From positions 12,028,001-12,092,000 of the forward strand of contig OX597825.1 of the NCBI GenBank assembly GCA_951406725.2: a DNA stretch of 64,000 nucleotides, in the 5' to 3' direction. The DNA comes from Octopus vulgaris (taxonomy: Eukaryota). Below are positions 5,063 to 61,170 of the stretch, piece after piece (positions within the stretch are counted from its first letter, which is position 1; each line of letters opens with the position of its first letter). The notes under the pieces are model-generated. The model worked only from the letters and a program-made list of their open reading frames with translations, was not told where the DNA came from and made no database searches. The translations under genes and the position numbers were made by a program.

Positions 5063-6264
5063 TTTGTATGCGTGTTTGACTGTTTATATAACAATCCTTC
5101 TGTCTGTCTATATGCACACACACATACACATAGACATACGCACACGCATAAACACGCATACATTTATATATATAGGCAAACGATTACGTACGTCCACTCA
5201 CACTCACATCTTTTATGGAAGATACACACACACACACACACAAATATAAACGCAGACAAACACATACACAATCATGTATCGGTGGTTGTAGATGGTGTTG
5301 ATGATGTTCATAAGTCTCTACCCGTCGTTGAATTACGGACAGCGCTCATTCGCTGGCGGTCTGCGCTGTTTCCGTCTTGCAGCTGACCCCTCATAAGACA
5401 CGGGTCCATCCATTATGGCAGAAAGCAGATGTTCAGGATTCTACGGTAGCTGAGCCCAGGAGGCCAGAATTACGAAGGTGAAGATTATACGACCCCGGTG
5501 AACAAACATATATATACATACACAGGCATACATACACATACACAAATACATATACATTTACACATATACAATATACATTTTATACTATGCACACACACAC
5601 ACACACACAGACACATACCCGCACACACACACATATATGTATTTGTGTGTGCATATACATACAGATATATATGTATAGACAGGAAGTACGCTAAGAACTA
5701 GCCAAGATTCACGCATGTCGTTATATACAGCAACGCATACAAACAGTCTATCACTAAAACGTAAAGCAGATATATCTATAGGAAACAGCAGCACCGTGGA
5801 TCAATGTTTCCAATGAGAAAGAATGGTGGATTGACCGTCTCTGTGTGTCGGTGTGTCTATGCCATCAAAAGACACTCGAAAAAAAAGTCAATAAGCACTT
5901 TAGACAGACACGCTCCTTGGCGCCTTCTTCTGCATTCGTAAGTACCTAAGCGGCTTTTCATTCTCTCTTTCAATGAGGAACACTGAGATATCCGGTGCCC
6001 AGTTAAACTCTAACGACAATAATATTATTGATTCCTTTCACTGTGTGCTTTCAAAAGCCACAGAAATCTGTTTATGGCGAAGGTTACAGCGGGTCAATTC
6101 CTCGCTAAGCACTTGATTCTTCGTATAATATCTCATGTTAGTCTTCCTGGAATTGCGTGTTCTTCAATATGATTATATATCGTGAGATTTCACAAACAAT
6201 GTGTTTACTGTGTGATTTTCTCATATTCCAGCTGATAATGCCATAATTTTCTGCTAACAAATCC

Positions 6265-6373: not shown

Positions 6374-6693
6374 TGTGTGTGCATGCGTGTGTGTGCGAAT
6401 GCTTGTGCGTTGGATTTGTATCTGAACGTGTAGGGTGTGTGTACATATATATATATATGTTTGTGTGTGTGTGTATGTGTGTGTGTGTGCATATATATAT
6501 GTTTGTGTGTGTTTGTGTGTGTGTGTTTGTGTGTGCGTTTGTGTGTATGTGTGTGTGCGAATGCTTGTGCTTTGAATTTGTATCTGAACGTGTAATGTAC
6601 CGCATGTCTACGTATTTCTCTATCACTAAACATACACAGGTAGAATGGACGGAACAGACGCACATATACATGTAGACAGGCACGCACTCATTC

Positions 6694-6724
<31 letters not shown>

Positions 6725-17454: not shown

Positions 17455-17691
17455 TAAGGTGGCGAGCTGGCAGTATCGTTAGCACTCCGGGCGAAATGCT
17501 TAGCAGTATTTCGTCTGTCGCTATGTTCTGAGTTCAAATTCCGCCGAGGTTGACTTTGCCTTTTATCCTTTCGGGGTCGATTAAATAAGTACCAGTTAGG
17601 CACTGGGGTCGATATAATCGACTTAATCCGTTTGTCTGTCCTTGTTTGTCCTCTCTGTGTTTAGCCCCTTGTGGGTAGTAAAAGAATAGAT
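17455..17691 (+). mobile_element. Full-length SINE family A monomer with TSD
   Basis: Complete head to ...GTGGGTAGTAAAAGAATAG tail; flanked by TGTCATGACA at 17445-17454 and 17692-17701. Confidence 0.95.
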
Positions 17692-27829: not shown

Positions 27830-28661
27830 CACCCTCTTACACCATCTGCAGGACCACGTGATGGAAGATCCGAGCAAGGAATTACGGGCTTTGGGGAGAA
27901 AGATGGGTGTTGGAATCGTCAATGTGCAGCTGGCTGGATCTGAATGAAAACCTTCGATGCAACTAGTTCTAGGTGCAAAGGACACATTCTGACAGCCCAG
28001 GCCTAGGAGACCCGCAAAACGAAGGCAAAGAAGCTCCTGAAGAAGCTGAAGCATCCCATAGCCCCCCGGGACCATCTGGTTCTTCTCCGATGAATAGAAC
28101 TCCTGCCAGAACCAGTCGCACTACGTCCAGAGCAAGATGCAGACTGCCTATAATTACCATCCATGTAATGTCCCTCGCAACACGAAAACCAAGTTCCTCC
28201 AAAGTGTGATAGCCGTTGGGTATTTCTTCAGTTAGTGTGAAGTCATGCTGCACAACATTTTTGAACCTAGATTTTGGCTCAATTCAGGTGCTCATGTTTA
28301 GACGCAGGACCCTGTGGTCGGAGAGGATTGCTGTTTAAACGCCACTTGTATAGCACCAGGTTTCTGCTCCCTGGTATACAACTGGAAAGTGTCAGACGTG
28401 GTTGTCGAAGAATTTCTGAGACTTCAACCAAACCCTATTTCTGGGCTTCTAACTCCTTCCTATGATAATCGCAAGTGTTACTATATTGGGGTGCAGTTGA
28501 AAGGTACCAACCGCTTTGTCTGCAACAACATGACTGAGTTGATGGCCAAAATCAAGGATACGTTTAAGGACCATCCCGGGAATACAAACAGGAACGCAAG
28601 CGCCAGGTTGCGGAGCCGTCTTGAAGCATTGGTGAAAGTTGAGTGTGACTACATTGAGTAA
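27830..28661 (+). pseudogene. Decayed Tc1/mariner transposase, maT (DD37D)-like
   Basis: Across stops and frameshifts: KGHILT..KAKKLLKKLKHP / GTIWFFSDE*N / VPRNTKTKF.QSV / HQVSAPWYTT.KCQTWLSKNF (QQDSAPCHT equivalent) / FWASNS (WPPNSPD equivalent) / WGAVE / RLRSRLEALVKVECDYIE*. TIRs not found. Confidence 0.88.
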
Positions 28662-30953: not shown

Positions 30954-31328
30954 AGGCACAGGGCCTGAAATTTGTTGGGTAGGGACTAGTCGATTACATC
31001 GACCCCAGTGTTTCACTGGTACTTAATTTATCGATCCTGAAAAGATGAAAGGCAAAGTCCACCTCAGCGCAATTTGAAACAAGAACAAAATACCTATTTC
31101 CTTACTACCCACAAGGGGCTAAACACAGAGAGAACAAACAAGGACAGACAAACGGATTAAGTCGATTATATCAACCCCGGTGAGTAACTGGTACTTATTT
31201 AATCGACCCCGAAAGGATAAAAGGCAAAGTCGACCTCGGCAGAATTTGAACTCAGAACGTAGCGGCAGACGAAATACTGCTAAGGATTTCACCCGGCGTG
31301 CTAATGTTCCTACCAACTCGCCGCCTTC
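30954..31328 (-). mobile_element. SINE family A tandem dimer
   Basis: Head ends near 31326; junction AAAATACCTATTTC at 31087-31100; second unit ends in the GGCACAGGGCCTGAAATTT-type tail. Confidence 0.9.
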
Positions 31329-34723: not shown

Positions 34724-34748
34724 AAAAAGCAACAAGAATGGATCAATA

Positions 34749-34837
34749 TTTCGGTACAATTGTTTCGTACGAAGACAGCTTTATTAAGGCTGCAAATATT
34801 GCAGTAAATATAAGTGACCCGTAATCATCAGCCGAAA
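34749..34837 (-). ncRNA. Type I hammerhead ribozyme, long stem II variant (one mismatch at 10.1-11.1)
   Basis: UUUCGG-CUGAUGA-U UACG...CGUA C-GAAA-CAAUUG-UA-CCGAAA: 6-bp stem I, canonical core, stem III palindrome ACAAUUGU, GUA triplet. Confidence 0.85.
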
Positions 34838-34973
34838 AAACAGCATATAGATTTCTGGTGCATCTAAGTTAAGTACCGCATTCATGTGAATTCAACAGAA
34901 CTCATTTGAATCTTAATTGCTTCTACTATATATATATATGTATATATACATATATATACATATATATGTAGAA

Positions 34974-45768: not shown

Positions 45769-45849
45769 ATTTGAAATTAAAAATTAAAACGATGCTGAAA
45801 AGACTGTGCTTCACAATATTATTTCGCGAATCAAAATCGGTATTCCAAG
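45769..45849 (+). other. Putative 81-nt spliced exon of an unidentified host gene
   Basis: Acceptor T17-CACAG|A and donor AAG|GTATGT. Only one frame is open (LKLKIKTMLKRLCFTILFRESKSVFQ, phase 1 at both ends), with ATG at 45792 and A at -3. Product not recognised. Confidence 0.7.
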
Positions 45850-46025
45850 GTATGTTTTAATATTATTTTGAATTTCTTATGGAACTTCTTGGAATTTCTT
45901 ATGTTTTAATATTGCTTTGAATTTCTTACGGAAATTTATTAAAACGTATGAAAAAATATGAAAAAACATATTATCTCATGCGAAGCTCCGAATGTTAATC
46001 CTATATTAATGTCTGCTAATGATGC

Positions 46026-47180: not shown

Positions 47181-47489
47181 TAATAATATAAATCTAAAGA
47201 GGTGGAAAGTGCATACACACACACGCATAGTTATATATAAGCACAAAGTCAGAGAATCGACGTTGTTGTGAAAATGTCGTCTGAAAGTAGTTCGCTAGGG
47301 ACACATTGAAAATGCTCATTAATTCTCGATGTTCTTCGTGCACGCACTTAATTATGTACGTATGTGTGCTGAAGAGGTTTGTTGGTAAGAAGTTTGCTTA
47401 CCAAACAGATTCTTCTGCGTGTCACTCACCACAGTCTTGTGAGTGAATTTGGTAGATGGAAACTGAAAGAAGCCCTTCGTACATATATA

Positions 47490-58934: not shown

Positions 58935-59416
58935 TATATATATAGTTATATTTTCCTTACGAAAGATACAGCCTGCATAGAATTGCTCAAGTCGAGCCTG
59001 AGACGTTAGACAATTATAACAAGTGGAATGGAGAAAGTTCAAATCAGGTAAACCCCAATGAACACATATGTATTCGGATTTCATTAGATAAAAATTGTCT
59101 CCAAAAACATATATTGATATATTAAAAATACATATAAAATATAAAGACATGAATATTAAAAATATATATGGACATATAAATATATGAATATGCAAATATA
59201 GCAAATATGATGAAATATAGGATTATATATAAAAGTGTGTTTTTACAAAATTATTCATATAGGCATCAAAAAATATTGTACATATTAGAAGAAAATATTC
59301 CTACGGCCGTTCCTACGGCCGTTCCTACGTCTCCTGCATCAAAGAAGAAGTTATGTTTACAGTAGAAATGCATTCAGTTCATTGCTAAGCTATGAGGTAA
59401 GTAGAAGCTTTTATGG

Positions 59417-59479
<63 letters not shown>

Positions 59480-59858
59480 CATATATGCAAATGGTAGAAG
59501 TCTATATGAGGGCTGATGACGGTAAAAATTACTTTACTTAGTGTCTCTATTAAAATTTATATATATATATTGGCGATGTCGTGCTATAGGTAATATAGTG
59601 TTTTATTAATGATTTCTTAGTACGTTCAATCTCTGGTTTAAATAAGCCATTTACTGCCAAGAGAGTGTCGTTCCTATGGACCCCATCAGATACGTTTGGA
59701 AAACTTTTCTTAATTTGGGAAAGGATATATAGACCCACAAAGTCTGTCACCTGGGCCGAATCTCACGAACCTATACTGATGTCGAAGTAACTAAGAAAAA
59801 ATTTCTATTTATATATTAAACGTCGTTTTTGTTTATCTTTACTTTCCTTTAAATCTCA

Positions 59859-59940
59859 CCTACTGAAGAGTACAAATTCGACCTTTATGATGTTCTCTTT
59901 ATGAAAATCTTGGTTCTTTTGTACGAAACAATTGTCTGGG
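59859..59940 (+). ncRNA. Intact type I hammerhead ribozyme, long stem II variant
   Basis: CCUA-CUGAAGA-GUACAAA..GACC...GGUU..UUUGUAC-GAAA-CAAUUG-UC-UGGG: all core residues canonical, G10.1-C11.1, 7-bp stem II, stem III palindrome ACAAUUGU, GUC triplet, 4-bp stem I with one G-U. Confidence 0.9.
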
Positions 59941-61170
59941 AATATGAAATAAAATGTTAATCCATTTTATCATCAAATCTGCTTCAGTCCATTTATTTGA
60001 TGAAATTTATTGAACTTTGTTAAATACATTAAATCTTACTTTAGTTACTTCTGTTTTAACACCTTGTTAATTAACACACTCACCGGTTCGATTTCCATTC
60101 AGTTACTTAATTATTTTTTCTAAAAATTCCGTTGCGTCTGGCAAACTTGTCAATAGTCGTCGACTGTTATCAGAGCTGCGTTCCCTTATGTTTGCTCCTT
60201 TGTGCGCATGTGTGCGCGTCAGTGTGCATGTGTATACACACATGTATGTACATATGTATGTATATGTATGTTTGTGTGTATGCATATATGCGTGTGTATG
60301 TATGCATATATATATATATATATATATGTGTGTATGTGTGTGTGTACGTTTGTATGTATATATTCTTCATATTCATATGTTCGTGTGTTCATGCGGGTGC
60401 GTGTTTCTAGTGTGTGTGTGTTTGTATTTGCTTATATTTGTCTGTGTACCTCTGTTTCCTTGAGCGTGTATAAGTGTATGCGCTTCTGTGACTATTGGTT
60501 TCTCACAGCTACAGATCTGTTTTCTACAACATGCAGCCATGTTTAACATGTAATTTGATATGTAAAATTGATATGCGGCAAGTAAACTACAACCGCAACA
60601 CGTTTCAACGTTCTTAATGTTACTCTACACTCTTAAAGATGCCCAATTACCTAACTCCAACACTATTTATCTTTTACCAAAGGAACAGCGTCATGGCACG
60701 TTCTACTTTTGTTACGAAGCCAAGATACTCACATAGCCTTAATATACCAACAATACCCTAAATATTACAAAGTGGAGGCCATTACCTTTTTAATTTTCTG
60801 CATCCTGATACCACGACTCCATATTTGTGAAGGTCTGGGTACGATATTTAAAATCAAACGTAGTACTTTTGACAATACTGTGTTGAATCAACGCGGTATA
60901 AAATACAGCTGCAACAAAATGAGTTTTGAGTAAAATTCCTTCGTTTGCTTACCTACGCAAGCACGCACACACACACACAAACACACACACACACACATAT
61001 ATATACACACACATATATATATGTATGTATGTATATAAATATATATATTCACACATATATATGCATTTGCATGTATATAAATATGTGTATGTGTTTATAT
61101 ATGCGTATGTATATAGCTATCGATATATCTGCCGTTTAATCAATTGTCCAATGTACCCATATTCATATGC

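Follow-up and report, generated by a model that had tools for sequence, protein, structure and literature searches.

A long-stem-loop-II hammerhead motif in a decayed fragment of a dispersed, likely Hydra-clade Penelope-like retroelement family of Octopus vulgaris

Hydra-clade Penelope-like retroelements are defined by an endonuclease linker, CxxC, CxH, RWK and DKT motifs and (TA)n junctions, and canonical hammerheads are known from their 3' ends (PMC8557442). These hammerheads often have G.U or U.U at position 10.1-11.1 (PMC8557442 File S2). Minimal hammerheads of metazoan Penelope elements cleave weakly and only as dimers (PMC4209133). In an anole Penelope element the hammerhead requires protein, and insertion in vitro can do without this ribozyme (PMC11167929); the role of Penelope hammerheads is still unsettled (PMC11167929 and the discussion in PMC8557442). 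Conserved amniote hammerheads are mentioned in the accessible part of PMC7229834, and the stem II insertions in that of PMC2777235 are engineered ones only. In the literature searched, mostly outside subscription journals, no long-stem-II or cephalopod Penelope hammerhead was found described in the accessible texts beyond PMC8557442; the supplements of PMC4209133 may list long-arm examples.

We analysed a stretch of 64,000 nucleotides of Octopus vulgaris DNA (contig OX597825.1, forward strand), here called the window, and a hammerhead motif on its forward strand at 59859-59940. Read from the sequence, the motif consists of the stem I 5' arm CCUA (59859-59862), the catalytic core C3-A9, CUGAAGA (59863-59869), the stem II 5' arm GUACAAA (59870-59876, with G10.1 at 59870), the stem II extension GACC/GGUU (59880-59883 / 59912-59915) around a 28-nt apical region, and the stem II 3' arm UUUGUAC (59918-59924). 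These are followed by GAAA (59925-59928), which starts at G12 and ends in stem III, the palindromic stem III ACAAUUGU (59928-59935, from A15.1 onward), C17 (59936), after which cleavage is predicted, and the stem I 3' arm UGGG (59937-59940). Every nucleotide and helix listed in the original prediction was found in place. The spacer between the core halves is 55 nt, stem I includes one U.G pair, and there is no extra nucleotide between A9 and 10.1. The CUGANGA...GAAA...UH core, three helices and open stem I are those of a type I hammerhead, and its assignment to the Penelope-like hammerheads, whose palindromic stem III is of the dimer type, is supported. Helix sizes differ from those of the canonical hammerhead with loop 1-loop 2 tertiary contacts (4-bp helix II, 6-bp helix I).

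A descriptor scan of the window returned 59859-59940 as the sole strict match, together with one looser match at 47369. Since 300 block-wise dinucleotide shuffles gave 0 strict and 0.013 loose matches per window, the motif exceeds chance. The looser match (47369-47477, +) has a non-palindromic stem III, lies inside an abundant repeat that we take to be SINE-like, and is probably a chance occurrence. Rfam models at gathering score gave no family match anywhere in the window; by E-value, 59000-61000 gave no hammerhead, and the only matches were to microsatellite-driven miRNA families.

Folding of the isolated motif is unremarkable (z-score -0.68). In local folds stem II has pair probabilities of 0.85-0.99, with at most 0.16 for stem I and 0.01-0.04 for stem III in the monomer, and the minimum-energy fold has a different stem I register and lacks stem III. 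Relative to the minimum-energy structure, the hammerhead fold costs 2.3 kcal/mol in a 91-nt context, 2.9 kcal/mol in one of 121 nt and 8.1 kcal/mol in one of 265 nt. As a self-duplex the palindromic stem III is worth -6.4 kcal/mol. The alternative helices in the motif are short and chance-like only. A candidate pseudoknot helix between loop II and the 3' flank arose and proved no better than shuffles (p=0.93 for the window motif, p=0.13 for the nine long-arm types described below combined). The proposal that the long stem II supplies tertiary contacts is therefore unsupported, as this pairing test is not significant and no loop sequence is visibly common to the families.

The motif lies within a dispersed repeat. 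Similarity to the other 29 loci compared starts at or after 59788 and stops by about 60052-60061, and this homology outlines a 5'-truncated 3'-UTR fragment at 59788 to ~60052 (265 bases, +) of what is likely a Hydra-clade Penelope-like retroelement. A DNA search of the 2.8-Gb genome gave 44 matches, 40 of 140 candidates having been scored. In all we identified at least 134 distinct copies of this family, which we call F1; at least 115 have the full motif, a lower bound, and 19 are partial copies that were excluded from the alignment and tree. Counted from the core, the copies extend to widely differing 5' positions between -11 and -878. A common terminus occurs in 18 of the 115 copies, ~280-390 nt downstream and mostly followed by TA-rich sequence, and many others stop near +190 in (TA)n. 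At 16 loci there is an inverted second copy. Insertion at (TA)n, 5' truncation and inverted truncated copies are all features of the Hydra clade. A direct duplicate was identified at one locus only (L185), where two F1 motifs lie 4.2 kb apart (846-966 and 5090-5210, -). They are near-identical, have a 12-nt deletion in common and no ORF match between them, and the pair looks like a local duplication.

Other repeats were noted in the window. The end of a very high-copy repeat (60049-60137; summed contig depth in the tens of thousands) adjoins the 3' end of the F1 fragment, and a 234-nt dispersed repeat occurs at 1214-1447, 17456-17689 and 31094-31327 with 89-91% identity and in inverted orientations. 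Repeat-finder output for the window is dominated by microsatellites.

We identified the decayed end of an endonuclease ORF upstream of the F1 motif, on the same strand and at least 1.1 kb away, at four loci (L091, L093, L100 and L143). It is GIY-YIG-type and has remnants of a CxC..C linker, CxxC and CxH; one linker cysteine is lost in L093 and one in L100. A complete C-terminal GIY-YIG domain with CxCX5C linker, CxxC and CxH was found in the relatives L146 and L147 and in L260, a locus of a second family described below. In the ESM Atlas the L146 domain reaches a score of 0.96 against a GIY-YIG cluster with PF01541 on 23% of its members, and RWK and DKT motifs were identified in the relative L145, itself without an F1 motif. 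A genome search with the ORF fragment gave 9,870 first-look candidates, of which 150 were scored. Pfam did not recognise the endonuclease and reverse transcriptase (RT) fragments, six-frame translation of the F1 UTR region gave no coding signal, and no intact F1 ORF was found. At L118/L137 and L189 the motif is inverted beside ORF pieces. RT matches in L059/L094, L101 and L189 are on the strand opposite to the motif. The assignment of F1 to the Hydra clade rests on the endonuclease and the architecture, because no sense-strand RT piece was seen upstream of any F1 motif. With this basis, F1 is likely a Hydra-clade Penelope-like family with the motif in its 3' UTR. In two loci (L091 ~6417-6700 and L140 6189-6734), a Penelope ORF fragment follows the 3' end and (TAA)n tail of another non-LTR element, an arrangement that may reflect targeting of such tails.

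Comparison of F1 subfamilies points to past selection on the motif. Among subfamily majorities, 0 of 11 core columns vary as against 48 of 120 others (p=0.007), or 26 of 80 others when restricted to 59855-59945 (p=0.019), in Fisher tests that are not independent of the grouping because the subfamilies come from a tree of the 115 copies with the motif columns included and the bootstrap not settled. The sole core position within CUGAAGA that differs is N7 (C/U, G or A by subfamily majority), and H17 is A or C in every majority. Both are positions that a hammerhead leaves free. Three pairs change in a compensatory manner between subfamilies: the outer pair of stem I, 59859:59940 (G-C, A.C, C-G), 59871:59923 in stem II (U-A, U.C, G-C, the last in 6 of 7 copies of SF6b), and 59883:59912 in the stem II extension (U-A, U.G, C-G). 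In this respect the long stem II is a genuine feature that F1 has conserved. Pairing statistics were taken from 58 of the 115 copies, picked to span the subfamilies, in which 84.9% of cells pair, compared with 22-45% when the partners are slid. Covariation, which the original prediction had named as a check, is evident in these three pairs and in the cells changed on both sides (39 vs. 13.4 in shuffles), but not in the pair-level count (4 vs. 3.7; 279 of 500) or in RNAalifold, which returned no consensus pairs from the 58-copy alignment. Given core columns that are invariant across subfamilies and three compensatory pairs, it is likely that the ancestral F1 motif was a type I hammerhead under selection.

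The base of stem II is less constant. Position 10.1-11.1 is G.U in SF1-3, A-U in SF4, mostly A.A in SF5 (12 copies) and G.A in SF6a, the largest subfamily with 36 copies, in which a U.C lies beside the G.A. The R10.1-Y11.1 pair is present in the window copy (as G-C) and in the second family, and broken in SF5 and SF6a. CpG decay was considered as the source of U11.1 in SF1-3 and rejected (36 TG, 2 CG and 0 CA of 41). That subfamilies with A.A, G.A or U.C at the stem II base nevertheless amplified would be expected if the motif were a relic kept by descent only, with no catalytic role even in an active element. The spread of Naiad elements lacking canonical hammerheads (PMC8557442) and the in vitro dispensability of cleavage in the anole element (PMC11167929) are in line with this. 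We consider it improbable, however, in view of a core that is invariant across subfamilies and unrelated families despite fully changed stems, and of broken pairs that were later restored, both at the outer pair of stem I and at 10.2-11.2 (U.C to G-C in 6 of 7 SF6b copies).

The window copy belongs to the SF6 group, is ~11-14% diverged (end branch 0.11-0.14), which is ordinary for F1, and shares no more than 88% identity with its nearest relative in the set. Of the 115 copies, 52 have an intact core and 14 have core plus stems intact; the window copy alone (1 of 115) combines the core and all stems with G10.1-C11.1. The combination A59923/C59924 is private to it. When the trait columns are masked, its nearest neighbours are G.A/U.C copies; we also considered whether the window copy forms a sub-lineage with L024 in which a perfect stem II is ancestral, but masking the four trait columns took away the support for this. 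Thus the description of the motif as fully intact holds for the letters of this copy, but not as a sign of current function, because its subfamily mostly has G.A and U.C at the stem II base and the perfect closure is private to the window copy.

Contigs from other runs bear on the age of this closure. In runs X2 and X3, contigs span the same left junction with 4 and 6 differences in 383 nt; these orthologous junction contigs are present, and every contig aligned at 59923 has C. Only run X4 carries the window's letters. This is moderate evidence on A59923, as contigs can drop variants and the contig table omits at least one expected row (59915). The absence of A59923 from the X2 and X3 contigs makes the perfect pair look recent rather than conserved. 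From these alignments, we put the odds that A59923 is a recent change at about two to one, and the perfect GUAC/GUAC closure is probably in part recent chance.

Intronic hammerheads of amniotes, HH9 and HH10, are few, conserved and canonical. A comparable setting had been proposed here, in which the window copy, co-opted by a host gene, would cut a pre-mRNA intron co-transcriptionally. None of the other 114 copies combines an intact core and stems with G10.1-C11.1, runs labelled with the names of other organisms contain the junctions of this insertion, and 14 kb upstream on the same strand there is a single-copy, exon-like segment (45769-45850, +) with a long polypyrimidine tract and canonical AG/GT splice signals. 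Yet we identified no host gene and no intron across 59863: Pfam gave 0 matches in 60 tested of the window's 441 ORFs, and the best ORF has four weak, unnamed homologues (E 1e-6 to 7e-4). This ORF (28302-28658, +; 119 aa) looks coding, and has no Pfam match and no longer homologue found. No RNA dataset carrying the window motif was listed, and run X1, presumed to be RNA, yielded one family contig that differs from the window by 10 letters and a 3-nt gap and resembles another copy. A second sense F1 copy was not found in the window or the next 40 kb, so a palindrome-type dimer would have no cis partner there. The energy cost of the hammerhead fold (2.3-8.1 kcal/mol), the low stem I probability, the lack of A59923 in X2 and X3 and the ordinary divergence of the copy also speak against co-option, which we regard as very improbable. 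The intron role is unsupported: no host gene, RNA dataset with the motif or dimer partner was found, and the motif travels as part of a retroelement fragment that is dispersed and decayed. Probably the window copy is inert and of no consequence to the host.

A second hammerhead with a long stem II was identified in the window by the F1 covariance model (34745-34842, -; E=1.6e-4). The predicted parts are a core at 34831-34825, GAAA at 34766-34763 and H17 at 34755. It lies in a fragment of another family, F2, and has a private U at 10.1 (34824) where the family has G. The fragment sits between (TA)n tracts. F2 copies are 97-99% identical, and the 24-nt 3' half of the motif has 245 exact matches genome-wide (control 0). 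The F2 spacer is 58 nt; the core, GUAC/GUAC and ACAAUUGU recur, the 6-bp stem I has a sequence different from that of F1, and there is no blastn similarity between the two families. In L260 and L263, Hydra-type RT and endonuclease ORF pieces precede the motif on its own strand, with RT motifs recognised in L260, and L259 has an endonuclease piece there; ~1.15 kb separate the ORF end from the motif. In folding predictions, stems I and II form with probabilities mostly of ~0.8 and the hammerhead fold lies 1.2 kcal/mol above the minimum. F2 is a young family with a predicted intact long-arm ribozyme. Many F2 copies form inverted pairs. The F2 ORFs in L259 (1964-3682, -) and L260 (2466-4053, -) have long asparagine-rich, internally repeated insertions, which flank a thumb-like region on both sides, upstream of the endonuclease.

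A relaxed descriptor was applied to 1.2 Mb of loci and returned 34 distinct matches (0 in five shuffled passes), a tally that is not a genome-wide rate because the loci are enriched for F1, F2 and endonuclease matches. Among the 34 there are nine sequence types with spacers of 42-77 nt and three with 14-18 nt. Beyond F1 and F2, the long-arm motifs are at L079:31 (+), L096:8850 (-), L099:7038 (+), L114:2363 (-), L134:1275 (-), which is also the L153 motif, L158:2667 (-) and L027:3032 (-). These seven have a 42-77 nt stem-loop II and an 8-nt palindromic stem III, and each is of different sequence. Three of the nine types are linked to Hydra-type ORFs (F1, F2 and L134/L153); the L134/L153 motif sits right where a Hydra-type endonuclease ORF ends. 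The short-arm hammerhead-like motifs are in L099, L101 and L120.

The recurrence of nine types with 42-77 nt spacers, when shuffles gave none, raises the possibility that the long stem-loop II serves these hammerheads as a functional module, which might, for instance, dock the element's RT-endonuclease or act as a folding switch for conditional cleavage. The spacer length stays near 55 in all F1 subfamilies, the F1 extension pair covaries (U-A, U.G, C-G), and the anole Penelope hammerhead is assisted by protein (PMC11167929). The loop sequences, on the other hand, are not visibly common to the families, the pseudoknot test is not significant and the alternative helices are short and chance-like, while three short-arm motifs occur in the same genome and the scanned loci are enriched for F1 and F2. 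We consider a functional module doubtful, though less so than a relic. That the Hydra-clade elements of this lineage use a distinct class of dimer-type hammerhead, with a 40-77 nt stem-loop II as such a module on which the element's RT-endonuclease might land and turn cleavage on, is likewise a tentative suggestion. A functional long arm, with the same low expectation, would be compatible with processing of the element's own RNA.

We conclude, with a probability of roughly 80%, that a Hydra-clade element carried this type I hammerhead in its 3' UTR and cut its own RNA with it, and that the window copy is old, truncated and probably non-functional. Since it lies in an old Penelope-like fragment with more than 100 copies, an own-RNA cutting signal is likely and a host-gene switch is not. 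In an active element, the ribozyme would act as a dimer through its 8-9 nt palindromic stem III, or with the help of the element's protein. Cleavage would fall 190-325 nt short of the element's 3' end and process a tandem or read-through precursor. The stem-loop II of 55 nt is likely a tolerated, lineage-wide expansion with a selected base helix and a free tip. The subfamily of the window copy amplified with G.A/U.C at the stem II base, and selection in it was presumably relaxed; a lone inserted copy such as that in the window would cleave slowly or never.

If the long arm is functional, there would be a class of hammerheads invisible to Rfam and to short-loop descriptors, and the hundreds of near-identical copies of the young family would make that class directly testable. 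Rfam did not pick up the long-arm motifs here, so that counts of hammerheads in such genomes are likely too low. F2, with its predicted intact ribozyme, is a better experimental target than the window copy. Across the F1 subfamilies, stem II retained, lost and regained its closing pairs against an unchanging core, and this series bears on the amount of cleavage that the element requires.

The intronic setting proposed for the window motif resembles that of amniote HH9 and HH10, from which it differs in being one diverged copy of a large family. The non-LTR retrozymes of animals described in PMC7229834 are also type I, with a weak helix III and better activity as dimers, and in the axolotl Amex2 motif, as in several F1 subfamilies, the base of helix II is mismatched. 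However, retrozymes are 150-450 bp tandem repeats without an ORF, and this identity was rejected for F1, which is dispersed, 5'-truncated and endonuclease-linked and forms no tandem array at the site.

The metazoan minimal hammerheads (PMC4209133) also resemble the motif, with a helix II of 7-8 bp, a helix I of 4-5 bp and a palindromic helix III. They too occur as dispersed single copies from truncated elements with predicted dimer action, and as opposite-strand pairs 100-700 bp apart. Unlike in those, 10.1 directly follows A9 in the motif here, F1 does not conserve the G10.1-C11.1 pair, and the loop II region is ~40 nt. Long distances between core halves are found in the part of PMC8557442 available to us, in PLE-X1_sMoe of Selaginella (34-nt loop 2) and in the Naiad HHR_half_core (35-50 nt); these belong to different clades, and the text examined presents no covariation or family-wide conservation for them.

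There is also a likeness to the elements of the Hydra clade as described in PMC8557442. In common are the C-terminal GIY-YIG domain with CxCX5C, CxxC and CxH (RWK and DKT in a relative only), the (TA)n junctions and inverted 5'-truncated copies, a type I hammerhead that lies in sense orientation close to the 3' end and has a palindromic stem III, and tolerance of G.U or U.U at 10.1-11.1 (File S2). The 3' UTR before the motif exceeds 1.1 kb in F1 and F2, unlike that of the published Hydra elements, and by eye the Hydra-1_Obim hammerhead has a different sequence from the motifs found here. The original prediction had called the long stem II unusual. This holds against the 26 Hydra rows of File S2, in which by our own count at most 26 nt separate CUGANGA from GAAA and loop 2 is at most 10 nt, compared with 55 nt in F1 and 58 nt in F2, but not within this genome, where the long arm recurs in nine types.
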